Positions 12,249 to 44,674 are shown, counted from the first letter of the stretch. The stretch is 47,069 bases of DNA from Candidatus Thorarchaeota archaeon (GCA_011364905.1 RDNZ01000022.1:1-47069), one strand, 5' to 3'. The notes: a model not told the origin generated them from the letters alone. A program made the numbers and translations.

Positions 12249-12255
12249 ACCGAAC

Positions 12256-13683: not shown

Positions 13684-14804
13684 CAGAACAAGGCAAGATT
13701 GCTGAACAAGTGAGGATGTGCGCTGCATGTCCTAAGATGTGTAGGCATGTTTGTCCCACTTTTTTTGCATGGAGATCTGATGCTCCCACTCCTCATGGTC
13801 GGGCTTTATTATTACATCAAGAAATTACGGGATTACGCAATATCGATGAACGAGGCGTTGAGGTACTGTATCAGTGCCTTGAATGCAGTCATTGCCTTAC
13901 TTGGTGCAAACCAGAGATAGACATAGCTTCTCTTGTTGAGAACAAACGATGTGATCTGGTGAAATCAGGACGTCAGCCTTCTGGTGTAAATCGACTTGCG
14001 AATTTTGTAAAAGAAACACACAATCCGTTTGGTGAGAAGCACTCAAAAAGGAATGATTGGTTAAAGACCGGTAGTTTGAATGGCCCGAAAATAATCTACT
14101 TTTCTGGCTGCACAGCCGCATATCGAGAAAAGAGCATTGCTCAGGATACGATTTCGATTCTTGAGTATCTTGGATATTCAGTTGCAATTACGCCTGATGA
14201 ATGGTGTTGTGGAAGTCCATTATTCAGAACTGGGGATACGGCGACTGGACTAAAACAAGCATCCCATAATGTTGAAGTATTGAATGATATCAATGCAGAG
14301 GAAATTATAGTCACATGTCCAGGATGCTATCGTGCACTCACGAAAGATTATCCTGAGAACGGTTTCGAACTCGATAAACCTGTGCAGCACATAAGCGAAT
14401 TTTTGAATAGATTGGTAGACAAATTGCCTCAGGGAGATACCAATGGGTCGGTCACATTTCATGATCCATGTCATCTCGGACGACACTCTGGTGTCTATGA
14501 TGCACCGCGTGCAGTCATTGAACGAATTTCTGGCAATCCCATTGTCGAGATGGAGAGAAACAGAGAGAACGCAATGTGTTGCGGTAATGGAGCTGGTCTA
14601 AGAACCCTTTTTCCAGAGCATGCCAAAATGATAGGGTCTGAAAGAGTTCGTCAGGCGTTGAACATCAATGCAAATTGTATTGTGACATCATGCCCTTTTT
14701 GCAAAGAAATGCTGGAGGCGCAATCAGAGAGGAGAGTCGCTGTCTTTGACTTGCCTGAATTTGTCATGCAAGGGATTGAAAGCCGCAATGTGAAGACAGA
14801 TTAG
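13680..14804 (+). CDS. Fe-S oxidoreductase (GlcF/HdrD-like, CCG domains)
   Basis: CAACPKMCRHVCP, CLECSHCLTWC, CCG, CPGC, HDPCH, CCG, CPFC; GTGA overlap with the upstream gene. Confidence 0.88.
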   Translation: MTEQGKIAEQVRMCAACPKMCRHVCPTFFAWRSDAPTPHGRALLLHQEITGLRNIDERGVEVLYQCLECSHCLTWCKPEIDIASLVENKRCDLVKSGRQPSGVNRLANFVKETHNPFGEKHSKRNDWLKTGSLNGPKIIYFSGCTAAYREKSIAQDTISILEYLGYSVAITPDEWCCGSPLFRTGDTATGLKQASHNVEVLNDINAEEIIVTCPGCYRALTKDYPENGFELDKPVQHISEFLNRLVDKLPQGDTNGSVTFHDPCHLGRHSGVYDAPRAVIERISGNPIVEMERNRENAMCCGNGAGLRTLFPEHAKMIGSERVRQALNINANCIVTSCPFCKEMLEAQSERRVAVFDLPEFVMQGIESRNVKTD

Positions 14805-14832
14805 GATTAGAAAGCAAAACTTGGTGATTTGT

Positions 14833-15951
14833 ATGAACGCAGAGGAAGCCCTACAACTCAAGGTTCGACTCCTTACACAAGGTGCCCGTTTCTCAGACAA
14901 ACAGCTGAATCTCCGAAAAGGCGGTGCAGGTCCGGTAGGTGGTAAATACTTCATTCTTCCGAATGGTCTAACATGCGGGGTACCAATTCGACAAGGTGAA
15001 ATGGCAAAGCTATACAAATCCGCTCCTATTGAACAAACAGATGATCCCAGCGTCTGGATCTACGACAATGAGGTGGAGCTGAAAAATATCCCGCGTCCCA
15101 AGTTCCTAGACCAAAAGACTGCTGATGGTACTCCTTTTCAAAAGATTGCGTTGCTGCATAGTGTTGGTACTCTCGCAACCACTGTCTATCAAGCTTGCAG
15201 ATATTGGGATGCTGGAACACAGTGCAAATACTGCACCATCCCCACGTCATACATGTCCGGTGCCACTGTACTCAAGAAATCCCCTGAGCACTTCGCAGAG
15301 GTTCTACTTGCTGCAGAGCGAGAAGGTGTAGTGAAGAATGTACTTTTGACAACTGGTACTCCCGATACTCCCGATATGGGCTTAGAACTCCTCATTTCTA
15401 TCATTGAGGCCATTCGTGAAGTGAGTAAAATTCCGGTTGGTGTCCAATTTGAACCCCCTGTTGAGAAGGAATGGATTCGCGATGTGGCAAATGCGGGAGC
15501 CAATGCCATTGGGATGCATATCGAGAGTGCTGATGAATCCATTAGAGAAGAGATGTGTCCTGGCAAATTCGAGTATGGCCCATTGGATTTGTACCGCAAA
15601 AGTTGGCTGTATGCTCTTGATTATCTTGGCCGTGGTAATGTCAGCACATTCCTGCTCTATGGGCTTGGGGAAGATCTTGAGAAGACACTAATGCTTGTGA
15701 GGGAGCTTGCTGATGAAGGTGTACTTCCCGTTGTCACCCCTGTTCGACCTGGCCACGGAAGTCAACTATCTGATTTCATTCCTACGTACGTGAAAGACTT
15801 GGATGCCTCAGTGGCGTTCTACAAGAAAATTGGGACAATTCTCTATGAGAATAACCTTAATCCTGAGAAAACTGCTGCGGGATGTCACAAATGTGGTGGT
15901 TGCACACCCGGACAGGAAGCCTATGATTGGGCTGCAGAGAATCACGAATAG
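14833..15951 (+). CDS. Radical SAM protein, MSMEG_0568/NitD-like family
   Basis: RKGGAGP, IALLH...LATTV.Q.C, Cx7CxxC (CRYWDAGTQCKYC), C-terminal AGCHKCGGC. Confidence 0.8.
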   Translation: MNAEEALQLKVRLLTQGARFSDKQLNLRKGGAGPVGGKYFILPNGLTCGVPIRQGEMAKLYKSAPIEQTDDPSVWIYDNEVELKNIPRPKFLDQKTADGTPFQKIALLHSVGTLATTVYQACRYWDAGTQCKYCTIPTSYMSGATVLKKSPEHFAEVLLAAEREGVVKNVLLTTGTPDTPDMGLELLISIIEAIREVSKIPVGVQFEPPVEKEWIRDVANAGANAIGMHIESADESIREEMCPGKFEYGPLDLYRKSWLYALDYLGRGNVSTFLLYGLGEDLEKTLMLVRELADEGVLPVVTPVRPGHGSQLSDFIPTYVKDLDASVAFYKKIGTILYENNLNPEKTAAGCHKCGGCTPGQEAYDWAAENHE

Positions 15952-15994
15952 TCTATAAATCACGAAATATAACCTTGAACCCTCTTTTGGCGAG

Positions 15995-16489
15995 ATGAGA
16001 GAGATGAATGCGTTTCCTGCAGAAGAGATTCGAATAATCGAGTTTGGCGAAGAGGATGCAGAAGAGCTTTCAGAGCTATTCCGAGAGGTTTGGCCGTTAG
16101 CTGTTGAATATCCTGAACACTGGAGGAAAAAGAGGATGTACTCCCCTAAGCGGATTATTGAGGAGATGCGGGCTGGGTATCACTATTTCGGGAGTAGACT
16201 CGAGGGAAAAATAGTTGGGGTCTATAAGGCCATAATCACTGAAAAGGGTCTATACGGAGAGCAACAAAGCGTAAGACGTGATTGTAGAGCTACCGGACTT
16301 GCGTCTGCAATGTACATGCAATTTGCAGAGTATGGTAGAGCTCATGGCTGCAAACGCAATTATTGTAACATTCTTGTTGGACAAGAAGTTGGAGAGAAAC
16401 TTATGAAGAAGTTTGGTTTTCATCCTTGGGGAGAACCATATGAACAATCAGAGGGCATGCTGGTACAAATGTACGAGCGACTTCTTTGA
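15995..16489 (+). CDS. GNAT-family N-acetyltransferase
   Basis: V...CRATGLAS acetyl-CoA loop and KKFGF motif. Confidence 0.75.
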   Translation: MREMNAFPAEEIRIIEFGEEDAEELSELFREVWPLAVEYPEHWRKKRMYSPKRIIEEMRAGYHYFGSRLEGKIVGVYKAIITEKGLYGEQQSVRRDCRATGLASAMYMQFAEYGRAHGCKRNYCNILVGQEVGEKLMKKFGFHPWGEPYEQSEGMLVQMYERLL

Positions 16490-26366: not shown

Positions 26367-26978
26367 TTAACCAATCTCTCTCCACTCTAGTATCTTCATA
26401 TCCTCTAGGCTGTTGAGTGATTTCTGGACCTCTTTGAGAGTCAGTCCAATCTGGTCTGCTATATCTCTAGTCGTAAGCTTGCCGTCGCATTTCTTGGCCA
26501 CATCAAAGGTCTCTTGAGTCATTTGACCAAGACGAACAAGCATTGGGTTCACTTTTCCTTTTAGAACTGGAACGACGATTTTTGTTTCTGAGGCGTGACC
26601 ATCCTTAGTGATTTCATCTAGGGTTTTGTAGAATACCTCAAAAGGTTCAAGATTGCCATCCCAATCTTGAAGCATGTTGTCATACTTCTTTGTGAATGTA
26701 TTATTGATATCAGCTAACACAGCCATAGCTGCGTTTCCATCATCCACCTTGTCAACAGTTGCTGCCACTATTACATTGTCCTTCAACGAGAGGCAGATAT
26801 CGAATGCACCAAAGTCAATCACGTGTACTCTGTTTCCATCACTAAGCTCGCGGCCAAATTGGATTAAAGCAGTAAGGAATCCACTAATGAGATTGGGATC
26901 CATGTCAGCTTCGCCATACTTCCTGTCAAGGACACATAGGCCGCTGTCGGCAATCAGGATGTACACGGCTTGTATCAA
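26367..26978 (-). CDS. Longin-domain protein with C-terminal winged helix
   Basis: VYILIADSGLC...DPNLISGFLTALIQFGREL...F.KKY...L..WDG....F is an Asgard longin pattern; CDGKLTTRDIADQIG...L..L wHTH. Confidence 0.85.
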   Translation of the reverse strand: MIQAVYILIADSGLCVLDRKYGEADMDPNLISGFLTALIQFGRELSDGNRVHVIDFGAFDICLSLKDNVIVAATVDKVDDGNAAMAVLADINNTFTKKYDNMLQDWDGNLEPFEVFYKTLDEITKDGHASETKIVVPVLKGKVNPMLVRLGQMTQETFDVAKKCDGKLTTRDIADQIGLTLKEVQKSLNSLEDMKILEWREIG

Positions 26979-31476: not shown

Positions 31477-32808
31477 TCATTTCAGTTTGTGCTTCTTGAC
31501 AAACTCTGTTAGAACGTCCTCTAGATTCGGTCTGCCTATCTCCTGAAGATCATATCGAACTCTGACATTTGGTTTGTCAATCTTTATGACGCGATTGAGG
31601 TCAATCGGAGTTCCGATGACTATTGCTTCGGCATCTGATTCATTAATTGTCTTCTGAAGTTCTGTCATCTGTTTCTTCCCATACCCCATCGCTGGTAAGA
31701 CGTTCTCCAAATGCGAATACTTTTCGAAAGTGGCTTTGATGCTTCCCACCGCAAATGGTCTTGGGTCAATAATTATCGCTCCAGCTTTTCGCGCTGCAAT
31801 GTAACCTGCCCCATATCGCATTCCGCCATGAGTGACAGTAGGTCCATCCTCTATGACAATCACGCGTTTGCCTTTGATCTTCTCAATATCTGATATTGTG
31901 AGTGGAGATGCTGCATCGATGATTGTGGCTTGTGGATTCACAGACATGATGTCCTCTCTGACTTTTTCTATATTCTCATAATCAGCTGTGTCTTCTTTGT
32001 TGATAACAACGACATCAGCCATTCTCAAATTGGTTTCACCGGGGTAATATGAAATTTCATGGCCCGGTCTGTGAGGGTCTGTAATAACAATAAGTAGGTC
32101 TGGTTTGTAGAAAGGAAAGTCGTTATTGCCTCCATCCCACGTGATGACATCTGCTTCTTTTTCAGCTTGCTCTAGGATTTTGCCATAGTCCACTCCAGCA
32201 TAGAGGATGACTCCCATGTTTATCATAGGTTCGTACTCTTCACGTTCCTCAATCGTGCAGTGATACTTGTCCATGTCTTCTAGCTTCTCGTACCTCTGGG
32301 CAATCTGCGTGGTTAGGTCAGGATCATATGGCATTGGATGTCTGATATTCACTGGTTTAAGTCCCAAATGCACGAGAATCTGATTTACCCTTCTTGAGGT
32401 CTGACTCTTTCCACAACCAGTCCGGACAGCACAGACTGCTATGACCGGCTTTTTACTCTTAATCATGGTGTTTTTGGGTCCCATAAGTCGCATATCGGGC
32501 CCTAGACTATTCACCCATGCAATCTTATGACCCACAGTCTGGTAAGGTAAGTCAGAGTATGCTAGAATGCACTGCTCAACATCTAACTCCTTAATGAGCT
32601 CAGGTAGGTTCTTCTCTGGATAGATTTTAATTCCCTTTGGATAAAGAGGTCCCGCGAGCTCCGGCGGATACATCCTGTCCCCTATTCCTGGTATCTGTTC
32701 TGCTGTGAACGCAACGACATCGTAGTCTTCGTTGTTTCTGAAGAAGACGTTGAAGTTATGGAAATCGCGACCGGCTGCGCCCATAATAATGACTTTCTTT
32801 TTACTCAT
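31477..32808 (-). CDS. Cyclic 2,3-diphosphoglycerate synthetase-like P-loop NTPase (possible arginine synthetase)
   Basis: IIMGAAGRDFHNFN, AVRTGCGKSQT, RHPMPY, EEREEYE, WDGGNND, EDGPT.THGGM. Confidence 0.85.
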   Translation of the reverse strand: MSKKKVIIMGAAGRDFHNFNVFFRNNEDYDVVAFTAEQIPGIGDRMYPPELAGPLYPKGIKIYPEKNLPELIKELDVEQCILAYSDLPYQTVGHKIAWVNSLGPDMRLMGPKNTMIKSKKPVIAVCAVRTGCGKSQTSRRVNQILVHLGLKPVNIRHPMPYDPDLTTQIAQRYEKLEDMDKYHCTIEEREEYEPMINMGVILYAGVDYGKILEQAEKEADVITWDGGNNDFPFYKPDLLIVITDPHRPGHEISYYPGETNLRMADVVVINKEDTADYENIEKVREDIMSVNPQATIIDAASPLTISDIEKIKGKRVIVIEDGPTVTHGGMRYGAGYIAARKAGAIIIDPRPFAVGSIKATFEKYSHLENVLPAMGYGKKQMTELQKTINESDAEAIVIGTPIDLNRVIKIDKPNVRVRYDLQEIGRPNLEDVLTEFVKKHKLK

Positions 32809-32919
32809 CTCTAGCTTCACTCCGGGTCTTGAGAGGTTTCTATGGCTTTGGATTTTGAGTCAAGTTAAAAAATGTCTGGTCTAACCAAACGCAGATGCAA
32901 TGTAACGGTAGTTGTTAGC

Positions 32920-33159: not shown

Positions 33160-33711
33160 TTGAAGCTAGTTGATCTGGCCAAGGAGTCAGTTAGGGTCTT
33201 AAAGGAATGCGGGGATGCAGGAATCAGAAGTGACATTTTGGCTGAACGGCTGGATACCCCAAAGCGGCGTGTCTATGATATTATTGCTGTTCTAAAAGCT
33301 CTAGGCCAAGTAAGCACAACTCGAAAGTTTGATGGAACTATCGTTCGATGGATTGACAAGAGCAAAGACTTCGTTCCTCGTGAGTACTATTCTGAGCTAA
33401 AGATCCAACTTGACCAAGAGAGCAGCGAACGGAAGCATCTCCAAGTTCAGGTGGCTGAACTCAAAGAACAGGTTCGTATTTCTAAAATCAAACTACGCAG
33501 AGAATCGACAGCTGTTGAAATATCAAACAAGACCGAGTTCAATACAACTCAGCTTCGTGTCCGTGCTCTTTCAAGTAATGGAATAAAGAGTGTGAAACAC
33601 TCTGGCGTAGAAGTGAAGATTGAGACTCATGAAGCTGGAATGGTTGTAGATCCGTCAGAAATTGAAGTGGACGAAAAGAAAGCCTTAATCACCAAGCTTC
33701 AGCGTCTTTAG
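33160..33711 (+). CDS. E2F/DP-family winged-helix transcription factor homologue
   Basis: LAERL...KRRVYDIIAVL.ALG.V......IVRW carries the RRxYD signature; followed by a coiled coil and a beta-rich segment. Confidence 0.85.
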   Translation: MKLVDLAKESVRVLKECGDAGIRSDILAERLDTPKRRVYDIIAVLKALGQVSTTRKFDGTIVRWIDKSKDFVPREYYSELKIQLDQESSERKHLQVQVAELKEQVRISKIKLRRESTAVEISNKTEFNTTQLRVRALSSNGIKSVKHSGVEVKIETHEAGMVVDPSEIEVDEKKALITKLQRL

Positions 33712-34189: not shown

Positions 34190-35332
34190 TTGGAGTGGTT
34201 TCGGCTGGCCTCCACCAAACTTGATGTAGCATTTGTTGTTGACACGACAGGTTCAATGAAGGACGATATCAAAGCAGTCAAGGACAGTCTCTTTGAGATT
34301 GTGGACCGTATTACCACAAGGACTGAGAATCTGGAGATACGATTCGGAGTAGTGTCCTACAGAGACCATCCTCCACAAGACAGGACATACGTGACACGAG
34401 TGTTTGATTTTGATGCAAAAGTAAAACGTGTTCACAAATTAATTTCCGATTTGAATCCCTCCGAAGGCGGTGATACTCCTGAAGCAGTGGCTGACGGTCT
34501 CTATGATGCTCGAACCAAGCTTTCATGGGAGCGAGATGCATACAAAGTTCTACTTCTTGTTGGAGACGCTCCGCCTCATGGAAGGACATACAATACCATT
34601 GGCGATGATTATTTCCCGGAAGGTTGTCCAAAAGGACATGATGCAATTACAGAAGTTCAACAAATGAGGACAGACTTCGGTAGCACAGTTTTCGTTTTTG
34701 TATGCGGATGCAATCCACTCGTTGAAGACTCATTTAGGCGAATTGCGGCATCAGTGGATGATGGACAATATTACTCTCTTCTCGATGCTCATGAACTTCC
34801 TGAGGCCATACTACGGATACTTGAAGGAGTGAGCGACTTAATCGAATCAGATAGGAAAGTGCTCACTTACTATGAGGCCAACGACGGTACTTTTGATATG
34901 GGTGACGCTGCATCCAACTTAAACTTGGAGCTAAGGGAGCTAAAAACATCCCTCTCACGCTTGCTCGAATTGGGCCGGATTGCCAGGTGGCCAAAAGGGA
35001 GACCGTTATCGACATCTCAGAAGGACCTGACAGTTGTTTTGGGAGAAATACCAAACAACATCGTTGCTGGAAAGGCTTTCAATTATACAATCAGAGTGAA
35101 GAATCCAAGCTCCACGGTTGTTGGTATTCGAGTAATTGCATCCATAGCTACTCCGGATGGCGTTTCCGAGGTCACAAATGAGCACCATGATATTAGCCCT
35201 AATGCAGACAAAAAACTTGAACTGAAGCTTGTGGCAATGACTGATGCCAAAGGAAAAGCATCTTTCAAAGTTGAAGTGTTTTATGGTTCGAGATCTGTTG
35301 CCGCAAAGATTTACAATACTCGAATATATTGA
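34190..35332 (+). CDS. vWA domain - wHTH - Ig-like domain protein
   Basis: DVAFVVDTTGSM, YRDHPPQD, GGDTPEAV, GDAPPHG; wHTH-like AASNLNLELRELKTSLSRLLELGRI; beta-rich C-terminus. Real start may be CTG 34205. Confidence 0.85.
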   Translation: MEWFRLASTKLDVAFVVDTTGSMKDDIKAVKDSLFEIVDRITTRTENLEIRFGVVSYRDHPPQDRTYVTRVFDFDAKVKRVHKLISDLNPSEGGDTPEAVADGLYDARTKLSWERDAYKVLLLVGDAPPHGRTYNTIGDDYFPEGCPKGHDAITEVQQMRTDFGSTVFVFVCGCNPLVEDSFRRIAASVDDGQYYSLLDAHELPEAILRILEGVSDLIESDRKVLTYYEANDGTFDMGDAASNLNLELRELKTSLSRLLELGRIARWPKGRPLSTSQKDLTVVLGEIPNNIVAGKAFNYTIRVKNPSSTVVGIRVIASIATPDGVSEVTNEHHDISPNADKKLELKLVAMTDAKGKASFKVEVFYGSRSVAAKIYNTRIY

Positions 35333-35345
35333 AGGAGGGATCTCA

Positions 35346-36488
35346 TTGAAACTACGTCCAAAACGCGGACGAAATCAACAAGGTCTTTGTTTTGTTTCAA
35401 CTAATCTATTTGATTCAACCACCAATGCATTCCAACTATCCTGTAAATCAAACTCCGTGATTTCGGATGTCAGGGCTTCTCCCAAGGTGCCAAAGGATGT
35501 TATCATTCTTGATGCACGTGTTTTCGATCAGCTTGCATGTTGCGAAGAAGACGAAGTTGAGTTGATTCCTGAAAAGAGCGAAATTCCAGTCTGCACTGAG
35601 ATTCATCTCGGCGTTGTGTCAAGAAGAGGTCTTGATAATCATACAGTCGCGCAAGCAATTTCCAAAAGAATTGATGACTTTCAAGAACACTTTGATGGGC
35701 TCATTCTCGGAGTTGGTCAGGAGATATCTTTGCCTGAATTGGGTGTCAGTTTAGTAATCAAGTCAATGAGTCCCGTTGAACCTAAGAGGAACGCGGCTAG
35801 AATCGACTGGAAAAGACTCATCAAGATTCATCTCAAAGCCATTGAATCAAAACCAAGTAATCTTTGTTTTATCGTGGAAGTGTCCGCAGCCACACAGATC
35901 AAAGATGTCCAGGTAGATGCAGCAGAAGACGCCCATATCACACGTCATCAAGGAATCCTAGAATCTCTTGAATCCCTTGAGGAACGACTGCAGCCTAAAC
36001 AGATTGAGAAATTCGCTGGATTCATCTTCTCTGATAAACTAGTTCCCTTCATTACCTTTGACTCACAGACCGGGGAGGAAACTCAAATCACTAACTTGCA
36101 TTCTGCATCTCTGATTGGATCTTTCAGAGTTTTCCTCGAAGGCACAATTAACGAATTCTCGCAAAAACCTTCTAATCCGGGTCTGGCTCTGAATCAAGGA
36201 TTAGACACAGCCAGTTTGCTGAATGAAGCCAATGGTCTAGTCACAATAGTTGTGTTCTTTTCAAGCGGCGTTTATTCCGCAGGCCAGAATCCCGTGAAAA
36301 TCACCCGTCAAGCCATGACCAATAAATCCGTCAAAATACTTTGTATTTCAGTCGGCGAGAATTCCGCAACAGACATTATGGAAGCTGTAGCTAAGGAAGG
36401 TAATGGATTTGTAATTCAATTGGATAGTGTTCAGAAGACCAGTTCAATTGCAGATGCCATAACTGAAATCGCTAACAATTCAGGGTGA
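35346..36488 (+). CDS. CDC48-N-like domain plus degenerate vWA protein
   Basis: VPKDVIILD..VF..L...E.DEVEL barrel pattern; vWA strands LCFIVEVS, VVFFSSG, ILCISVG, AVAKEGNG. Start moved to TTG after GGAGG. Confidence 0.75.
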   Translation: MKLRPKRGRNQQGLCFVSTNLFDSTTNAFQLSCKSNSVISDVRASPKVPKDVIILDARVFDQLACCEEDEVELIPEKSEIPVCTEIHLGVVSRRGLDNHTVAQAISKRIDDFQEHFDGLILGVGQEISLPELGVSLVIKSMSPVEPKRNAARIDWKRLIKIHLKAIESKPSNLCFIVEVSAATQIKDVQVDAAEDAHITRHQGILESLESLEERLQPKQIEKFAGFIFSDKLVPFITFDSQTGEETQITNLHSASLIGSFRVFLEGTINEFSQKPSNPGLALNQGLDTASLLNEANGLVTIVVFFSSGVYSAGQNPVKITRQAMTNKSVKILCISVGENSATDIMEAVAKEGNGFVIQLDSVQKTSSIADAITEIANNSG

Positions 36489-37603
36489 CTCTCTTGAGTA
36501 ATGACATCTCTACACACCTTCAGGCTCTTTTCCACACTGGTTTAATCACCGGATATATTCAATCAAGACTTGCTGAGGGTTCCCTTAAGACTGGTTGGAT
36601 CGAGCAGGGTCTTCTTTCAAAAGGAATGAAAGGGAATCTTCGTGATAAACACAATCAGGAGTTTCTCACAATTCCTGCTGATAGATTTGCCAGATTAGCA
36701 CGGGACTGTGGCGACGCAGAAGGTGTTTCATTAGCAGTACTCGGACCTAAGGGAATATCTTCAGCCAAATTTGTAGCTATGGTTTTCGGGACATCTGGAT
36801 CTCAAACTCTCATTGCTTTCCAAATTCAAAAGAGCCTGCTTGGAGACATAGTCCAACTTTTGCTGAAGGCTCTCGGAAAGAAAGCGACTCGAAACTCGGA
36901 GGATGCAAATTTGGATTATATTGAGCAGCTCAGACTTGACGCTACTGAGGGTGCCGTGAAAGAAGCAGTTGTTTTGTCACTCCCCAAGAAACAAGAGAAA
37001 ATATCGGGATGGATGAAAGATGCGTTACTGGGTCCTTCTTCTGACAGTATTGAATTCCAGCATGGCGATACCAATAAAATCACGAAATTTGCTGCTTTAG
37101 TCACTCGGTGGCTATCAGGTCTTGAACTCTTCAAGACTACAAACAATGCGATAGCTGCTCTTCTATTCATTGGCCGAGAAAACACTGAGGCATGCTTTTG
37201 GGACCAACCTCAGAGAATCGCCGCATTCACCTCATTTCATGACTTGAGTTTGCAATCGATTTCTCTCAAATATCTGAATCCACTCTGGATTGTCCCTGGG
37301 GAGAGTCTAGTGCCTTCTCGACCGGCTCGAGAAGTTACGGTTGAACCGATGAGACCCAGCGTTCGTTCCGAGGAATCATCACCAACATCCCAGCAGGAGC
37401 AGGTTCTAGATGCTCTCGCAAGAAGACTCGACTCATTAGAAACACGTTTGTCTTCATCTGTTGGGGATGTTGATACCGGTGGAAAAGACAGAGGCAAAAT
37501 GGACCTTCTGCAAACAAAATTATCTGAGAACATTGAGAGAATTGAATCTCTGTCTAAAAGGCTAAACGAGATTGAAGCGAGATTGAAGAAGATTCGTACC
37601 TGA
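36485..37603 (+). CDS. Hypothetical protein with Pro/Ser linker and C-terminal coiled coil
   Basis: GTGA overlap with the upstream gene; heptad repeats at the C-terminus. Confidence 0.75.
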   Translation: MTLLSNDISTHLQALFHTGLITGYIQSRLAEGSLKTGWIEQGLLSKGMKGNLRDKHNQEFLTIPADRFARLARDCGDAEGVSLAVLGPKGISSAKFVAMVFGTSGSQTLIAFQIQKSLLGDIVQLLLKALGKKATRNSEDANLDYIEQLRLDATEGAVKEAVVLSLPKKQEKISGWMKDALLGPSSDSIEFQHGDTNKITKFAALVTRWLSGLELFKTTNNAIAALLFIGRENTEACFWDQPQRIAAFTSFHDLSLQSISLKYLNPLWIVPGESLVPSRPAREVTVEPMRPSVRSEESSPTSQQEQVLDALARRLDSLETRLSSSVGDVDTGGKDRGKMDLLQTKLSENIERIESLSKRLNEIEARLKKIRT

Positions 37604-37621
37604 GTTGGATGTGCCTTACAT

Positions 37622-37873
37622 ATGAACCCTAATGATGAACTCGCACAGGAAATTCGTAAGCTTGAGAAAAAAATCCAAACTCTTGAACGAATAGCAAACA
37701 GCGGAAGCAACATTACTGCCTTGACTGATTCTGAACGTGTTTCACAAATTCTCATGCGAATAAACGCAATTCAAAACCTTGTTGATCAAGTGGAGATAGA
37801 GATTGATAAGCTTGAGATGAGGGTGTCAGCAATAGAACACATGGGATTCAGATTCAGAACTAGTGGTCAGTAA
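37622..37873 (+). CDS. Small coiled-coil protein
   Basis: Two heptad-repeat helices; last gene of the + strand run. Confidence 0.7.
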   Translation: MNPNDELAQEIRKLEKKIQTLERIANSGSNITALTDSERVSQILMRINAIQNLVDQVEIEIDKLEMRVSAIEHMGFRFRTSGQ

Positions 37874-40511
37874 CACCTTTTGTCAAGTTGTCTATAAGAC
37901 TCATGAAATAAGCTGAAAAAGACTGTGAGGAAAATGACTCAATTGGAATCACTCGGGCCTGCAATCCTTTCAGTACTCTCAGACTACTCTTCATGTCTCC
38001 ATTTTTTCCAAGAGTGAGAATATCTAGCTGATATCTATCGAATTCGGAAACTGCTCTGAGAAATGACAGATGCTCCTCATCATATACCCCAACCTCACTA
38101 CCGAGGACAAGAGCAATTGTTGGTCTATCTTCTCCAAAGTCCTCCAGATATTCAGCTACGGATCTGTATGCACCTGATATATTCTCGTGACCATCCGATT
38201 CTTCAATTGCATCAAGTATTGAATATATCAGAGAGATGAGAACCTCTTCAGATTGCATATCTTCAAAGAATTCAACATAGGATTGAACCTCATTCCCTCT
38301 TTGAATCGAGAATTTCTCAGGCGTGTTTCCAAACGTAACCAATGCAAAGCGCCCGTCACTTCGATTATGTATTAAGGTGTTTACAACTGACAGTGCAATT
38401 AATGCTGCAATCTGTGACCGTGAAGTTGTCTTTCGCAGCCCTTTGAGGAACTGGTCTAACTCCGGTACTTTTTCGGTTAATGAACTGAGTTGGGTTCTTA
38501 CCGTATGCATTGTCTTCAGAGTCACATCTTTCGTCTTCATCTTCATTCCTTTTGAAACGCAAAGAATCATGTTGAACTCCCTGAAAGCTTGTTGAGGCCT
38601 CAGTTGAGCTGACACCTCTTTGATTCTTCCAATTTGTCCCGACTTTAATTGCGGTTCAGTGCTTTCCAATAAGAGATTGACTTCGTTCTTTTCGCTGCCT
38701 ACACTAAGTTGTGAGTCTAATCCAATAAGAGTTCCATCAATTGCACGCCGAATGTCACTTTCATGTAGATGAATAAAGGATGCAAGTTCTCCATTGTCAT
38801 AGTTCTGCGGCGCACTATATGACAGAATGGCCTTTGAAATGTTCACGACTTCATCTTCATATTTTACTAGATTGACCACTGATGCGTCTTGAAATCCAAA
38901 AAGTGCAGAATCAGATTCAGACACAACAATAGATCTCTCACGGCATCTGGAGTGGTGCTTAGCTTCTCCAGCGGCCCACTTTCCAGTACTTGAATCTAGG
39001 GCTAGGACATAGTCCCCCGACGAAACTGCAAGCGCGGTCATGTCATTTTCACACATTAGAAATACACCCGGCTTGGATTTTGCAATCTCAACTCCAAAAT
39101 GAAGTGCAGATAGTATTTCTTTAGGATTATCCAACTGAAGACAGGTTAGAAGTGCTTGGTCAAAGTGTGTCAGCTGAGCTGGAGAGCTATAGACCGGACC
39201 CTCAAGCTTGGCATTCGCGCGGACCAATGTGTCCAGCAGCACTCCATCTCTTGTAACAAGGCTTTCTGAGAATGCATCTCTCCAACCAGACACCATTATG
39301 GAGCCATTCTTTTCAAGCAATAGTGCCAGGCTCGTCGCCTTGGGATTTGTTGGATGTTTCAATGTCAAAACCGCACTATCTAGATGAACTAGTCCCCCGT
39401 CATTGTCAACCATGTAATCAAGTGAAACAACACTAAGAACTTTGCGAGCATCCAAGATCTGTAAAATTCTAGCAAGCTCATTCATGGCTGCTTTTCCAAG
39501 GCCCTCCTCTGCTGCCACTGAAGTAGCGTTTTTCTCGTAAACAAGAAAGGTTGGGCGAGGTGGAAGAATTGACAACATGTTGCCACCCAAAACACGCTGT
39601 ATCTCTTCTGGTTCCGCTGCAAGGTTCCTACTTAGAAGGTAGCTAAAGACTTCAGATATGCTGTCACCGAATTGGGTTTCAGGATATGCTGACGCAAACA
39701 TTAGTCTCCTTGACCAATTGATATCACTCTGGTTCTTTCGCATGTGGCGAATGAGTGTTGATAGTGAAGATATTGTTGCACCTGATGTCAGGACCCTACT
39801 ACCGGGAACTTCAAGAAGACGCGTTATCTCTTTGCCCCATTGCTTGTGGCTTGTGGTTGAAAGAACAAGGTTTGGCGTTTTGAGACCTGCTTGCTTGAGG
39901 AGAACAAGCCATTCTAGCAATTGGTTCAATTCTGATGGAGGCCCAAGCTGAATAAAGATCGGTTTAGCAGCCTTCAAACCTTCTATGAGGTCTTTCCTGT
40001 TTGCTCCTTTTAGAATATGCGGAAGATCCCTCGCTCCTAATACACATCCCCAGCCCTTCTCTGTTCTCCTATCCTGTCGCATATCCTGAAGGTGCAGTAC
40101 CCGAGGACTGAAAGGGGGGACGGTTGCCCATCTATAGATTGACTCTGCATTTGCATTCTGTTGGAGCTGTGGAAGCATGGTATTTCCCAGACCTATAAGA
40201 GGGCTTACCACTAAATAATCCACAATCCAGCTTGTTTGGGACGGCGTTCCAGAACCATGATAGAATTCACTGAGTAATTTTGGCATTCGAAGATAGTCGT
40301 AGGCTCTTCTTGGTATGTACTTGAAGGCGCCTGGATATTGCGATGAAAAATCATGAAGCTGGTTTTCAACCATGTTATAATATGAAAAGGCTCTGTCCGG
40401 ATCAAAAGTGCGTATATTGGCGCCTGCACGGACTATTCCCAAGTGAGCGGCACCGTCGACGACAACAAAGCGGTGTATCTCATTTGCTTCACTGTCTTCG
40501 ACAACTATCAT
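37860..40511 (-). CDS. Fusion: inactive amidohydrolase-like region + CDC48-N-like + degenerate vWA
   Basis: Colinear similarity first to 40649..42163 (QRVLGGN, SLD.M) and then to 42234..43532 (FN..LC...MKT.DV, PE...FL, SR...AA). Confidence 0.82.
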   Translation of the reverse strand: MIVVEDSEANEIHRFVVVDGAAHLGIVRAGANIRTFDPDRAFSYYNMVENQLHDFSSQYPGAFKYIPRRAYDYLRMPKLLSEFYHGSGTPSQTSWIVDYLVVSPLIGLGNTMLPQLQQNANAESIYRWATVPPFSPRVLHLQDMRQDRRTEKGWGCVLGARDLPHILKGANRKDLIEGLKAAKPIFIQLGPPSELNQLLEWLVLLKQAGLKTPNLVLSTTSHKQWGKEITRLLEVPGSRVLTSGATISSLSTLIRHMRKNQSDINWSRRLMFASAYPETQFGDSISEVFSYLLSRNLAAEPEEIQRVLGGNMLSILPPRPTFLVYEKNATSVAAEEGLGKAAMNELARILQILDARKVLSVVSLDYMVDNDGGLVHLDSAVLTLKHPTNPKATSLALLLEKNGSIMVSGWRDAFSESLVTRDGVLLDTLVRANAKLEGPVYSSPAQLTHFDQALLTCLQLDNPKEILSALHFGVEIAKSKPGVFLMCENDMTALAVSSGDYVLALDSSTGKWAAGEAKHHSRCRERSIVVSESDSALFGFQDASVVNLVKYEDEVVNISKAILSYSAPQNYDNGELASFIHLHESDIRRAIDGTLIGLDSQLSVGSEKNEVNLLLESTEPQLKSGQIGRIKEVSAQLRPQQAFREFNMILCVSKGMKMKTKDVTLKTMHTVRTQLSSLTEKVPELDQFLKGLRKTTSRSQIAALIALSVVNTLIHNRSDGRFALVTFGNTPEKFSIQRGNEVQSYVEFFEDMQSEEVLISLIYSILDAIEESDGHENISGAYRSVAEYLEDFGEDRPTIALVLGSEVGVYDEEHLSFLRAVSEFDRYQLDILTLGKNGDMKSSLRVLKGLQARVIPIESFSSQSFSAYFMSLIDNLTKGVTDH

Positions 40512-40648
40512 TCCATGAGTCTCCAGAATTACCTATACCAACGTCAACGGAAGTCGATATATGCATAGTGCCTATTTCTATGCAAATTGCATCAACGAAA
40601 GAATACTTTATCACTTATGTGGGACAAACACCATTTTGGAGGAACTGA

Positions 40649-42163
40649 GTGTTTATGCTCATTGTGCGAGCTGTTGAAGACCAACCCAATCGCGGCATAA
40701 AGAAAGGAGATGAGTTTTCAATCTATATAGTGGATGCTCACCACCATATGGGTCGTGAGAAAGGGCATAAGAACACGCCAGCTGGAGCATACGAATTCTA
40801 TGCTCAGCTCTGGTTCGAAATTCAAAAAAGAGTTAAGGGGCTTTTAGAAGAAGACCGTCTTCTATTTGAACCAGTTGGCATTGAAGCGCCAGAATTAGCT
40901 GTTCACCTTTTTCGAAGCAAAGCCAGTTGGTCAAGACTTGATCATGGTTGGCTCGTTGACCGCACAATCGTCTTTCCTTACTCAGATGACTATTCAACTC
41001 CCTCAGAAAAAGGTAAACCATCTTTTGAAGTGTCGAATGATAAAATATCATCCTGGACCGCAAGAGCACCTCATTCCTCACGATTGATTGGTTTTGCACG
41101 TGTCAATCCACTTGATGGGTATCATGACGGTTCTCTCGTTGCAGTCAAGGAGCTTGAAAGAGCTGTGTTATCTCTTGGACTTCGTGGTCTCAAGCTCCAT
41201 CCTCTCGCGCAGCTTTTCGTTGATTCCATAGATAAGAGTGAGCCTCGTGAGGTGGTGAAACGAGCTGGAGAGCTGGGAATCCCAGTTATCTTTGACACGC
41301 GAAATATGCGCACAGTGGTACGAATCAAACGTCTTGTTGATTCGATGAGAAATGATCCTGATTGTGGATCAGCAATGAAAGGGCTCAAAGTGATAATGGC
41401 GCATTGCGGTATGGCTCCAGGTGATTCTCGTCTTTATGAAGCAATGAAAGACCCTGCGATTTTTGCAGAAACATCAACACTTCACGATAGGGATGTTCCT
41501 GTCCTTTTTGAAACCGCAATTGACCGGCTTAGCGCACCAAACATGGAATGGTCAGAGAAGATTCTCTTTGGGACCGATTTCAGTTTTCTCTCCGTTCAAG
41601 CTTTGGATGTCATACTCTTCTTGCTTTCTCGAGACTTCAGGGGGACTTTGACTGATGCACAAAGAGTACTTGGCGGCAATGCCCTCTCTATAATTAATAG
41701 GCCATTTCGAACCTCAACTGGTAGTTCTGGAGCACCAACAGAGTTTGTATGTAAGGATAGTTCATTTGCAGTCCAACATGAGCTCGAGAATAAGGTCGTT
41801 TCTCTCATATCAGAAGGTATGTGGGACTTGTGCTCGCTCGATTTCATGATTCCTCCAATTGGGACGTGGCCTGCAATCGATAGTAAAGCTAGCGGAGGAT
41901 TCAACGGCATTGATATGAATTCCTATGTTCTTACATTGTCGTCAAAGGAAAAGCCTAAGGAACTTCATTTCTGGGTGAGAAGGCGTCCAAATGATTACTT
42001 AAGTTGCGCATTACTACCGACACAAGGCATGACTCGATTAGATACACTGGAAAACGCTTCTCAAAAAATGGATCAGGTTTTGTTGAGATCGATTTCAGAC
42101 TATTCGGAAACACTTCAGTCTTCTTCAGATTTTCAGGTTCGTGTAATGGACATTCTCAGGTGA
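40649..42163 (+). CDS. Amidohydrolase-2 family metallo-enzyme with C-terminal extension
   Basis: VDAHHHMG, RLIGFARVNP, GLKLHP, MAHCG, ILFGTDF, LGGNA. Confidence 0.88.
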   Translation: MFMLIVRAVEDQPNRGIKKGDEFSIYIVDAHHHMGREKGHKNTPAGAYEFYAQLWFEIQKRVKGLLEEDRLLFEPVGIEAPELAVHLFRSKASWSRLDHGWLVDRTIVFPYSDDYSTPSEKGKPSFEVSNDKISSWTARAPHSSRLIGFARVNPLDGYHDGSLVAVKELERAVLSLGLRGLKLHPLAQLFVDSIDKSEPREVVKRAGELGIPVIFDTRNMRTVVRIKRLVDSMRNDPDCGSAMKGLKVIMAHCGMAPGDSRLYEAMKDPAIFAETSTLHDRDVPVLFETAIDRLSAPNMEWSEKILFGTDFSFLSVQALDVILFLLSRDFRGTLTDAQRVLGGNALSIINRPFRTSTGSSGAPTEFVCKDSSFAVQHELENKVVSLISEGMWDLCSLDFMIPPIGTWPAIDSKASGGFNGIDMNSYVLTLSSKEKPKELHFWVRRRPNDYLSCALLPTQGMTRLDTLENASQKMDQVLLRSISDYSETLQSSSDFQVRVMDILR

Positions 42164-42233
42164 CGCCAACTCACAATTCTTTATAACAATAAAGTTGGAG
42201 ACTCTTGATAAAGGACTAGAGGAGGCAAAAACC

Positions 42234-43532
42234 ATCACCAAAAAATTAGCCTTGGAAATAATAGATGGAGGCGACCTAAGAGGTTTTGCTAACATTAATC
42301 CCAAGATTGCCAAGAAACTTGATGCTGACATTGGCTCTATTGTCATTTTTGAAGATCCACAGAGTAGTTTTTGGGGTGCCGCTGAAATTAGAAAAAGCGA
42401 CGATACGCCAGAAAACGCTATTGTCATTGATACGCTAGTCCTTGAAGCTTCACTATTAATGGAAGGCGATCAAGTAGAGGTCACGCTTTATGATGAAGAT
42501 ATGCTTGCATTGGAATATGTGGAGTTTGGATTGAAACCCTTGACTGAAGACGCAAACACAGAAGATCTTGTTACCAGGGCAGCTGAGAGAGTCAAAGGAT
42601 TGGAGAACATTATTGGTGGTCGGTTAGTATATCCTGGCATGTCCTTCAATTGGCCAGAACTCGATGTAAAGGTCGAAATAATCAGTACAAAGCCTGAATT
42701 GGCAGGGAAGAGTTTTGCGAAGTTGGCATTTGAGGCTCTTCGTGAACGAACTGGTTACCAGTTCAAAACAGTGGGAATTGCAACTCCCTTCAATGCAGTG
42801 CTCTGCATTGATACAAGTGGATCCATGAAGACAACTGATGTTCCTGTTCAGGACATTGCACACGCTCGCGAGGGTCTGAAAGACCTTGCTGGAGATAGCC
42901 CAGAAGTCCAAGCCTTTCTCAACAGATTCGAGGAGGGTAAGAATGTCAGTCGCGCCGAGGCGGCAGCAATGGCTGTGTTGCTTTACTTGGCAGAGAAAGT
43001 GGGTCGTGGTTACGGCGAAAAGGTCGGAGTAATCACCTTTGAAAAGGAAGTCAGCGAAATGACATTTCTAAACTCTGACACAGGTGAAGTTCAGCCTTTT
43101 GTAGAGTGTACAGGCAGAGAGAAAGCCTTGGGCCTGCAAATCATAAGTACTCATGTCGTCGATAAGGTCGAAGAGGGAGGTACACTCACAGATATGGGCA
43201 CAGCTCTCTCCAAGGCACACGAAATAATGGACGAATTTGGGGACCCTGACAAACCCACTATGCTCATCATGCTAACAGACGGAATGACCACTTCTGGACC
43301 TCCGCCGCTCAAGATACTAAGAGAAAAATTCACTGAGCGAAATAAACTGGTTATTTATTCAATCGGACTGGGCGAGCGAAGTGAGATAGATGAAGAGCTG
43401 ATGCTGGCCATAGCTCAATATGGAAATGGTAGTTATCGTCACGTTGACAATATGAGGGATCTCCTTGAATGGTACGGAAAACTTGCCGGGGAGTTTGCTG
43501 TGGTTATTCGAGGCTCTGAGCACCCGGTTTAG
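42234..43532 (+). CDS. CDC48-N-like domain plus vWA protein with intact MIDAS
   Basis: A.INP.IA.KL...G..V and IVID.......L.EGDQVEV double-psi barrel pattern; DTSGS, TDMG.AL, LTDG, SIGLG. Start is ATC 42234 (after GGAGG) or TTG 42195. Confidence 0.85.
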   Translation: MTKKLALEIIDGGDLRGFANINPKIAKKLDADIGSIVIFEDPQSSFWGAAEIRKSDDTPENAIVIDTLVLEASLLMEGDQVEVTLYDEDMLALEYVEFGLKPLTEDANTEDLVTRAAERVKGLENIIGGRLVYPGMSFNWPELDVKVEIISTKPELAGKSFAKLAFEALRERTGYQFKTVGIATPFNAVLCIDTSGSMKTTDVPVQDIAHAREGLKDLAGDSPEVQAFLNRFEEGKNVSRAEAAAMAVLLYLAEKVGRGYGEKVGVITFEKEVSEMTFLNSDTGEVQPFVECTGREKALGLQIISTHVVDKVEEGGTLTDMGTALSKAHEIMDEFGDPDKPTMLIMLTDGMTTSGPPPLKILREKFTERNKLVIYSIGLGERSEIDEELMLAIAQYGNGSYRHVDNMRDLLEWYGKLAGEFAVVIRGSEHPV

Positions 43533-44674
43533 TCACGAGGTTCAAGAGCTTGAGTGAGGCCTTTCAAGGTTTCTAGGTCCATTTCCTGTATTTGATCCTC
43601 TGGGATTCCCTCAAGCATTACTTCTGGTATGCTAATTAAAAGCTCAGCCTTTTCTTGCCCGTACTTGTCGATGAAGGTCTGCATTCTTGTATCAGCTTCT
43701 TCCTCTACAGGTTCAGGCTCAACCTCTTCTGGTTCGCTCTCAGAAGTTGATGACAGAAGGGCTTCAAGTTCTTCAACGCTTAAGGTGGCTAGTGTTTCGT
43801 CACCAACCTCCTTACGAACTTCTGCTGGGAGTTTCTCAATCAACTCTTCTTGAGCCGTTAGCGATTTCTTCCTCTTTACTTTCTTTACCTTACGAACCTT
43901 GACCTTCTTCTTTTTCTTGGGTGCCTCAGATGGAATTGCGACCTTAAGTTTCTGCACGAGTTCTCTGGCCGATGAAGGTGTTAGACGTCTGAGATCTTCT
44001 GGAGGCAATGTGCTTAGTATTTCATCTGGCAACTCACTGAGAATTTCATCTATTTCGTCGGAAGATCCTCCCGCTTTAGAAGTCTCAACACTAGCTGCAG
44101 CTCCTTCTGAAAGGAGAATTGGGGTCCCTTCTAATTCTTCCTCAAGTGAGGCGGTGTCAATCTCAATATCAAAGTCTTTTCCGCGCCAGTTGTTATAATG
44201 ATCAATTGCAGATGGCTTCATTTTAATTCCTGTAAGGAACTTGTTAATGTCTTCGTCTATCATATCCGGAAAGTTATCAATGAGCTTCTCGATTTCATCA
44301 TCGGAAATACGCGCCCAAATCGGACCATTCAACAATTTTGATAGACCAGCGGCACAATGTGACCGCACCCATGGGCTGGAATCTTTTAAACCTTGGATCA
44401 TAACAGGAATTGTCCTCGGTTGATGATAAAATGCAAGTGCTTGTGCTGCGGCAATCCGTACATCCTGCACGTCATCTGAGAGGGATTTGACAATATCAGT
44501 TACTACAGTGGGATCCGCCAAGTCGATTGCCGCAATTAAGGCTCTTTCCCTGACGATATCTGATGGATCTGAGAAAGCTTTGATTAGTGCAGCTCTTTCT
44601 GCTTTACTCTCTCTGGCAAGTCGCCCTACCTCCTCTGTTTCGAATTCCAACAAAAGACTCCTTGTCTTTGCCAA
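43529..44674 (-). CDS. HEAT/PBS-lyase repeat protein with acidic repeats and a polybasic tract
   Basis: D....VR..A repeats (DPSDIVRERA, DDVQDVRIAAAQAL, DSSPWVRSHCAAGL); PKKKKKVKVRKVKKVKRKK. Confidence 0.85.
   Translation of the reverse strand: MAKTRSLLLEFETEEVGRLARESKAERAALIKAFSDPSDIVRERALIAAIDLADPTVVTDIVKSLSDDVQDVRIAAAQALAFYHQPRTIPVMIQGLKDSSPWVRSHCAAGLSKLLNGPIWARISDDEIEKLIDNFPDMIDEDINKFLTGIKMKPSAIDHYNNWRGKDFDIEIDTASLEEELEGTPILLSEGAAASVETSKAGGSSDEIDEILSELPDEILSTLPPEDLRRLTPSSARELVQKLKVAIPSEAPKKKKKVKVRKVKKVKRKKSLTAQEELIEKLPAEVRKEVGDETLATLSVEELEALLSSTSESEPEEVEPEPVEEEADTRMQTFIDKYGQEKAELLISIPEVMLEGIPEDQIQEMDLETLKGLTQALEPRD

Follow-up and report, generated by a model that had tools for sequence, protein, structure and literature searches.

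Pupylation involves the ligase PafA, the deamidase and depupylase Dop, and the tag Pup, which ends in GGQ or GGE. In MoxR systems, the ATPase is paired with a protein carrying a von Willebrand factor A (vWA) domain, such as CbbO, NorD, or CoxE (pairs CbbO/CbbQ, NorD/NorQ, and CoxE/CoxD). In DEPDC5, the N-terminal domain (NTD) resembles the N domain of Sec18/NSF and the SABA domain resembles a Sec23 domain, a combination that has been called unique (PMC8534245). Here, we analyze a stretch of 47,069 nucleotides from a Candidatus Thorarchaeota archaeon (RDNZ01000022.1:1-47069; hereafter, the window), in which eight contiguous genes at 34190-44674 encode, among others, a predicted metal-dependent hydrolase and a protein that joins a Cdc48-N-like domain to a vWA domain, here called the docking protein. 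Thorarchaeota is also where the names of its close homologues point. We propose that this cluster is the Thorarchaeia-expanded version of an Asgard-wide module with three components, a ligase, the hydrolase, and the docking protein, acting in the roles outlined below. We put the probability of this reading at about one half.

An initial annotation of the window had treated the eight genes as a single undescribed multi-protein system. As a whole, they are not one: only the pair formed by the hydrolase and the Cdc48N-vWA protein is widespread, and a GCS2-type ligase, encoded outside the window, had been overlooked as the third core partner. The same annotation knew of no named system with this composition, and our literature search likewise found no paper describing the module or a system so composed. 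The three-gene module has been kept, duplicated, and fused across many Asgard lineages, and it has no described counterpart.

Distribution and order of the core genes

Two of the core genes lie in the cluster. P0005 (504 residues; 40649..42163, + strand) encodes the hydrolase and P0006 (445 residues; 42195..43532, +) encodes the docking protein. Clustering of open reading frames (ORFs) across 17 loci yielded the third, a conserved neighbor of ~1150 to 1400 residues with a GCS2 carboxylate-amine ligase as its N-terminal part. In the window's own genome, this gene is found on another contig (C52:8726-12205) and encodes ~1150 residues. By sequence, we assign it to the GCS2/YbdK family: it scores 26.4 bits on PF04107, where the cut-off is 21, its relatives reach 39.1 bits, and it matches YbdK (1r8g) at 1.5e-7. 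Some 700 residues extend beyond the GCS2 core and carry beta-sandwich-type signals. On the same contig (3140-12205), two oligopeptide-type ATP-binding cassette (ABC) ATPase genes and two small genes precede the ligase on the same strand; immediately upstream, an oligopeptide permease gene runs in the opposite direction.

All three genes were surveyed in the same 301 Asgard genomes. The docking protein (vWA family) is present in 185 genomes, the hydrolase in 170, and the ligase in 172, and the three occur in the same ten Asgard families. Counts for docking protein, hydrolase, and ligase, in that order, are 70, 66, and 64 among the 76 genomes of family f1; 61, 62, and 62 among the 68 of the Loki-type family f9; 16, 15, and 16 among the 21 of f22; and 11, 10, and 11 among the 11 of f27. 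Each gene was found five times in f7 and six times in f19, and both of these families have two ligase and hydrolase gene sets together with further vWA copies. None of the three was found in 17 Asgard families (including 0 of 28 genomes in f5), and three further families gave weak vWA-family matches only.

The hydrolase gene is followed by an adjacent, co-directional vWA gene in loci of five Asgard families. Outside Thorarchaeia, this pair is the only part of the cluster that recurs, and its two genes adjoin in the same direction in loci of f2, f6, f7, and f19. The position of the ligase gene varies: it is convergent with and directly after the vWA gene in f6, f7, and f19, lies between the hydrolase and vWA genes in f22, adjoins the hydrolase gene in the Loki-type f9, and is ~9 kb away in Thorarchaeia. 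The core genes have been inherited and duplicated as a set, and in places they adjoin one another.

Among close relatives, the cluster is stable. Gene order is identical in all 10 same-genus loci, and the genes form a conserved unit, in line with the initial annotation; in three of these loci, P0008 is fused to the P0003 orthologue. Synteny within the window's family extends over the whole region, however, and takes in unrelated E2F-like, cyclophilin-like, and Rce1-like genes. Because unrelated genes are syntenic too, within-family synteny is weak evidence. This region-wide conservation, and the restriction of half of the eight genes to Thorarchaeia, would fit a locus of unrelated neighbors in which the repeated vWA and amidohydrolase domains reflect local duplication without shared function. 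For the core pair, that explanation is largely refuted. The pair is adjacent in distant Asgard families, also exists as a fusion, and passes a controlled complex prediction (below); the three core genes share one presence/absence pattern; and the pseudo-enzyme copies keep open frames, with nonsynonymous divergence (dN) well below saturated synonymous divergence (dS). We regard a mere collection of neighbors as very improbable.

Hydrolase, docking protein, and their predicted complex

P0005 belongs to the metal-dependent TIM-barrel hydrolases of Pfam family Amidohydro_2 (PF04909; 5e-13; 49.9 bits against a cut-off of 26.4). Its barrel spans residues ~25-352 and is followed by a family-specific C-terminal alpha/beta domain. 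Eight residues (D29, H31, H33, K182, H184, D216, H252, and D310) are invariant in 16 of 16 stand-alone orthologues, and the predicted metal ligands are the HxH motif, His184, His252, and Asp310. A sequence search of the PDB with P0005 gave no match. The AlphaFold2 model (predicted local distance difference test, pLDDT, 85.6) shows Z-scores of 20-22 to Amidohydro_2 structures, namely a COG3618 enzyme, LigW, ACMSD, LigI, and LigJ, with 4dlf among the structures matched.

For P0006, AlphaFold2 was run with 48 relatives and gave a model with a mean pLDDT of 90.9. In this model, residues ~17-195 form a Cdc48-N-type domain, consisting of a double-psi barrel and a beta-clam. The CDC48-N-like domain proposed by the initial annotation is borne out by several comparisons: the N-terminal half aligns with the p97 N domain 5epp_A over 190 columns in Foldseek (TM-score by target 0.74), Pfam CDC48_N matches 22 of 48 family members (best 4e-7), and the family profile matches Cdc48 N at 4e-4. 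Joined directly to this domain is a canonical vWA domain (residues 197-435; Pfam VWA_2 2e-10), with Z-scores of 20-24 to 4fx5, TFIIH p44, ITIH1, BatB, the Sec24 trunk, and ArnB. When compared by sequence with the PDB, the family profile also matches ArnB best (8s05_A, 1.3e-15). The metal ion-dependent adhesion site (MIDAS) consists of D206, S208, S210, T332, and D362; the 48 relatives keep D206, S208, and D362 without exception, and S210 and T332 almost always.

Within the genus, P0006 retains 90-95% amino acid identity, compared with 65-77% for P0005. It is by far the most constrained gene of the cluster by dN ranking, which is the only reading of constraint used here, since dS is saturated (>2.3 or not computable) and gives no dN/dS ratio. 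All named members of the family are from Asgard archaea. In the ESM Atlas, the sole full-length look-alike is an archaeal cluster, mostly of Promethearchaeota (TM-score 0.81). Longer relatives carry an extra N-domain, a second vWA domain, or a ubiquitin-like domain, the last being C-terminal on two family members. A word-index search for longer fused relatives found none, a result that the tool itself rates as weak evidence.

Loki-type genomes encode a longer form of the docking protein. In four loci (L024, L025, L026, and L031), the Cdc48N-vWA protein has 720-764 residues, as at 9461-13106 of L025 in genome G213, with a long N-terminal linker rich in Pro, Thr, and Gln and possibly an extra small beta-barrel, as judged by eye. 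This vWA gene is abutted by a Roadblock/LC7 gene (Pfam 1.7e-6) and then by a gene for a 282-residue protein that has no Pfam match and looks gelsolin-like by eye only.

When both domains of P0006 were searched together against the PDB with Foldseek, the top matches were DEPDC5 (9v0j_C, 3.8e-14) and Iml1 (8ae6_W, 7e-13), in alignments of 420-530 columns, with p97/NSF N-D1 next. P0006 shares the N-terminal layout of DEPDC5/Iml1, the NTD-SABA arrangement introduced above. DEPDC5/Iml1 is a scaffold that works with an NPRL2/NPRL3-type longin pair and Rag GTPases. On a proto-GATOR1 reading, the Cdc48N-vWA proteins would be archaeal counterparts of DEPDC5/Iml1 that regulate GTPases together with an NPRL2-like longin and Roadblock/Rag-type GTPases. 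Candidate partners do occur nearby: a gene for an NPRL2-like longin and winged-helix protein (26367-26978, -; weak Longin and HTH matches) lies 7 kb upstream, in a position kept in Thorarchaeia, and the Roadblock/LC7 gene adjoins the vWA gene in Loki-type loci.

Most of the evidence speaks against such a GTPase regulator. TM-scores to DEPDC5/Iml1 are only 0.36-0.41, with a root-mean-square deviation of ~10 Å. The vWA half of P0006 fits the MIDAS vWA domains listed above far better, and DEPDC5 falls outside its top 50 matches. With its chain ending at residue 445, directly behind the vWA domain, P0006 has no SHEN, DEP, or C-terminal domains. Pfam IML1 (PF12257) has no match in the window's genome at E up to 10 and is absent from the 25 families listed for the 48 relatives (E up to 1). 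The conserved partners are enzymes, not GTPases. Furthermore, the longin family, found in 224 of 301 Asgard genomes, is common where the module is missing (24 of 28 genomes in f5 and 19 of 19 in f12) and rare where it is present (1 of 21 in f22 and 1 of 11 in f27). NPRL2-like longins have been reported in Asgard genomes, and no DEPDC5 counterpart was found in that literature. We reject membership of P0006 in the DEPDC5/Iml1 family, and we hold the GTPase-regulator explanation to be improbable. A family-profile match to the DEPDC5 chain 9xzy_H (4.6e-5) was discounted, as this chain is a tandem construct in which the profile matched two separate stretches, and the score for Cdc48 N is similar. 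The docking family is the only prokaryotic family that we found to have the DEPDC5/Iml1 N-terminal layout, and this makes the origin of the GATOR1 scaffold testable.

P0005 and P0006 are predicted to bind each other. Three runs gave interaction prediction scores from aligned errors (ipSAE) of 0.72, 0.69, and 0.76, and the highest-scoring of three controls reached 0.00; these scores are the model's own confidence, and the custom alignments used fall outside the calibration of the tool, which holds only roughly. In that calibration, 58 of 80 solved complexes reached the ipSAE mark, as did 2 of 110 mismatched pairs. The runs have at least 67% of contacts in common, and partner pLDDT is at least 77. 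To our knowledge, no similar solved complex exists, so a pass from model memory is unlikely.

In the predicted complex, hydrolase contacts fall at residues 35-60, 186-191, 218-222, 255-258, and 313-317. These are the loops after each catalytic residue, which form the mouth of the active site in the model. On the P0006 side, contacts involve loops of the Cdc48-N domain (23-26, 56-59, 80-92, and 114-121) and a family-specific insert after the MIDAS loop (222-234). The docking protein is thus predicted to cap the mouth of the hydrolase active site. Its MIDAS residues lie outside the predicted interface, which would leave the MIDAS free for a third partner. The hetero-oligomeric complex suggested by the initial annotation survives in part: the hydrolase and docking protein are predicted to bind, but the eight genes are not one ancient system.

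An interface that covers the active-site rim of a metal enzyme might also serve maturation or gating, with the vWA protein, in the manner of the vWA partners in MoxR systems, inserting or retaining the hydrolase metal, or opening and closing the active site, and with ligase and hydrolase as steps of a small-molecule pathway. The structural relatives of the hydrolase act on small carboxylated compounds. GCS2/YbdK enzymes, to which the ligase is matched through 1r8g, ligate small molecules, and the ligase gene follows oligopeptide ABC-transporter genes in the window's genome. Nevertheless, the MIDAS is not turned toward the hydrolase in the predicted complex, conservation is far higher in the vWA protein than in the enzyme it would serve, and the ~700 extra residues of the ligase and the ubiquitin-like domains on vWA members fit macromolecular targets better. 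A MoxR/AAA+ partner is also missing. None was detected among the genes from 26970 to 47039 (Pfam scan of the region and its flanks), in agreement with the initial annotation, and none is among the conserved neighbor families of the 17 loci. We consider maturation or gating unlikely, while giving it real weight.

Inactivated copies and accessory genes

The cluster contains two degenerate relatives of the core genes. P0004 (883 residues; 37860..40511, -) matches P0006 over its residues 610-835 (BLASTP 1e-12) and P0005 over its residues 258-437 (6e-9); by these matches, it is a natural fusion of P0005-type and P0006-type copies. P0002 (up to 414 residues; 35244..36488, +; weak Pfam VWA match, 1e-3) aligns with P0006 over ~330 residues (P0002 residues 74-397; 6e-11). 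The three paralogous CDC48N-vWA modules described by the initial annotation are thus recovered, along with the sequence blocks it saw them share (KTTDV/IKDV/KTKDV, F.S.TGE, G..P.K, and A..GNG), all of which are present in the translations. So are its three MIDAS strings, one intact (DTSGS in P0006) and two degenerate (EVSAA in P0002 and SKGMK in P0004). Taken at its longest, the P0002 ORF begins 89 bases before P0001 ends (overlap 35244-35332). Because its orthologues have 380-409 residues, the true start of P0002 probably lies downstream.

Loss of the metal sites is consistent across lineages. In P0004, the positions of HxH, His184, His252, and Asp310 are replaced, as are those of the MIDAS. 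In each of the 12 fused copies, which come from four Asgard families, six or more of the eight active-site positions and four or more of the five MIDAS positions are replaced; the first Asp is the exception among the active-site positions. In P0002, the MIDAS positions read E/S/A/S/S, and the acidic and Thr ligands are replaced in six of six orthologues. The MIDAS is intact in the 445-residue orthologues and lost in both the fused copies and the 414-residue paralogues. Since its metal ligands are lost, the N-terminal half of P0004 is classed, from sequence, as a pseudo-enzyme. An active and an inactive amidohydrolase had been proposed from the window, and the contrast between invariant active-site positions in stand-alone proteins and their replacement in fused copies agrees with this.

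The frame of P0004 is intact, and its amino acid identity within the genus is 56-77%, which places it with the hydrolase at an intermediate level of constraint. For P0002, it is 36-53%, and P0002, P0003, and P0008 are the fastest-evolving proteins of the cluster. All cluster genes keep open frames within the genus. The Thorarchaeia locus provides a clear natural example of a "double pseudo-enzyme" retained beside its active parents. In one relative (locus L030, genome G171, 8125-16156), the HEAT, fused pseudo-enzyme, and vWA1 genes are each split into two to four ORFs, and the hydrolase and 445-residue vWA genes that lie between them are intact. This splitting reflects either decay of accessory genes or an assembly error.

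As the initial annotation had it, the region comprises eight ORFs in alternating strand units (++++ / - / ++ / -). The first is P0001 (380 residues; 34190..35332, +), a vWA protein that stands alone, keeps its MIDAS intact (DTTGS), and is extended at the C terminus (Pfam VWA 4e-11; VWA_4 1e-12). It is the first operon gene in all 10 same-genus loci and occurs in 71 of 76 genomes of the window's own Thorarchaeia-type family; elsewhere, it was found in 6 of 224 sampled genomes, from four families. P0001 is a lineage-specific accessory gene that hardly occurs outside Thorarchaeia.

Two coiled-coil proteins and a HEAT protein had also been proposed, and all three are supported by Pfam. P0003 (372 residues; 36485..37603, +) has a conserved globular region of ~290 residues followed by a C-terminal coiled coil, with coiled-coil Pfam matches only. 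Its orthologues occur in the 10 same-genus loci and in one other genus (genome G100, locus L029). Profile-profile comparison of P0003 with Roadblock/LC7 proteins gave a probability of 0.1%, that is, no similarity, and a feature-based protein atlas gave no usable match. P0008 (83 residues; 37622..37873, +) is a small coiled-coil protein with coiled-coil-type Pfam matches only. Its orthologues have 82-103 residues in seven same-genus loci and are fused to the C terminus of the P0003 orthologue in L040-L042. Across L034-L043, they close with the conserved stretch ...IEHMGFRLRT and then a final tripeptide that varies (SGQ, GAQ, GGQ, GGL, DGL, or TQE, the last seen twice). The GGQ form is reminiscent of Pup, but the pattern is inconsistent, and because the C-terminal residues vary, we make no claim of a Pup-like tag. 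The gene was seen only in the window's genus. P0007 (381 residues; 43529..44674, -), convergent with P0006, has N-terminal HEAT repeats (Pfam HEAT_2 4.9e-21) and an acidic, lysine-rich low-complexity tail. It keeps its position in same-genus loci and in G247, G100, G171, and G025, and no HEAT gene of this type was seen near the core in the other families sampled.

The accessory genes have a narrow distribution, as additions in Thorarchaeia and the lineages nearest to it. The HEAT and 372-residue genes were seen only in Thorarchaeia-type loci, and the 414-residue and 83-residue genes only in the window's own genus. Other Thorarchaeia genera lack P0002, with G247 also lacking P0003, and no P0008 orthologue was detected in those genera. 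An NCBIfam search with all eight proteins gave nothing specific. Two neighboring genes lie between the longin gene and the cluster. One (31477-32820, -) encodes a 447-residue protein with a weak match to CobW/HypB/UreG-type GTPases (4e-5). The other (33160-33711, +) encodes a 183-residue protein with an E2F/DP winged-helix domain (Pfam E2F_TDP 3.7e-8), and an E2F/DP gene stands beside the cluster in five Thorarchaeia-type loci.

Proposed roles and comparison with known systems

Our best guess is that the core module carries out the adaptor-guided making and breaking of an amide bond. The ligase would form this bond, of gamma-glutamyl or isopeptide type, on a substrate, and the hydrolase would process or remove it, so that the two enzymes might work in opposing directions on a single amide bond. 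Delivery of the substrate, which is most likely a protein, would fall to the docking protein, whose free MIDAS would bind a carboxylate and whose Cdc48-N cleft would bind a peptide or a ubiquitin-like fold as it guides the substrate to the hydrolase. Leads toward a protein target are the ubiquitin-like domains on two members of the docking family, the long extra region of the ligase, and the extremely high degree to which the docking protein is conserved. The 883-residue double pseudo-enzyme and the MIDAS-less 414-residue paralogue would form a second set, without catalysis, in Thorarchaeia. Together with vWA1 and the 372-residue, 83-residue, and HEAT proteins, this set probably makes up a non-catalytic regulatory or scaffold sub-complex.

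A bolder version, which we consider more doubtful than a maturation or gating role yet somewhat less so than a GTPase regulator, is that the trio performs Asgard-specific reversible protein tagging and that the build of the docking protein was later reused as the front half of DEPDC5/Iml1. In that case, target proteins would receive a carboxylate-bearing group or peptide from the ligase; the docking protein would recognize this mark by way of its MIDAS and Cdc48-N cleft, and the hydrolase would remove it. If the module does modify proteins, it would represent a further prokaryotic tagging chemistry beside the ubiquitin-like and Pup systems.

Several points weigh against the module as we propose it, beyond the limits on the complex score given above. 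A distance of 13-105 kb separates the vWA gene from the paired ligase and hydrolase genes in the Loki-type family. The solved relatives of P0005 are decarboxylases, hydratases, and lactonases that act on small carboxylated molecules, and not amidases. The name "amidohydrolase" for this reason leaves the chemistry of P0005 unfixed, and that chemistry could be small-molecule metabolism. The roles given to the Thorarchaeia-specific genes are drawn from synteny.

Each component of the proposed module resembles a described family and departs from it. P0005 has the fold and metal ligands of Amidohydro_2 enzymes (ACMSD, LigW, LigI, LigJ, and IDCase), but it has an extra C-terminal domain, which is also present in the fused copy. 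The ligase has a GCS2 core like that of YbdK (PF04107), but is three times its size. We know of no member of either family that works with a vWA adaptor. The N-terminal half of P0006 shares the double-psi barrel and beta-clam of Cdc48/p97/VAT and NSF; in P0006, however, the place of the D1 AAA+ ring is taken by a vWA domain, there is no AAA Pfam match, and no ATPase gene is nearby. With ArnB and the Sec23/24 trunk, the likeness is confined to the vWA domain (Z 20.7 to ArnB and to the Sec24 trunk), as P0006 has no zinc-finger, beta-sandwich, helical, or gelsolin modules.

The vWA-MoxR pairs offer a parallel in that a MIDAS-bearing vWA protein docks on a partner enzyme, as is predicted here. They differ in that the Asgard genes have no AAA+ gene in the window region or among their conserved neighbors, and a Cdc48-N domain is not a feature of MoxR-type vWA proteins. 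Pupylation shares the general design of an ATP-dependent carboxylate-amine ligase, an enzyme that possibly reverses or prepares the bond, and a recognition protein, and P0008 ends in GGQ, SGQ, or GAQ in some genomes. The P0008 tail is not conserved, however, since it also ends in GGL, DGL, or TQE. In addition, the Asgard hydrolase is a TIM barrel of the amidohydrolase superfamily, with a fold unrelated to that of the ligase, whereas the pupylation deamidase is homologous to its ligase. The Asgard ligase matches GCS2/YbdK.

The closest likeness in domain layout is to DEPDC5/Iml1 (Sea1), of GATOR1/SEACIT. Both have a Cdc48/NSF-N-type domain that leads straight into one of vWA/Sec23-trunk type, and both lack an ATPase. 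What sets P0006 apart is a MIDAS that is intact and conserved, and partners that, as judged from gene conservation, are a hydrolase and a ligase rather than longins and Rag GTPases.

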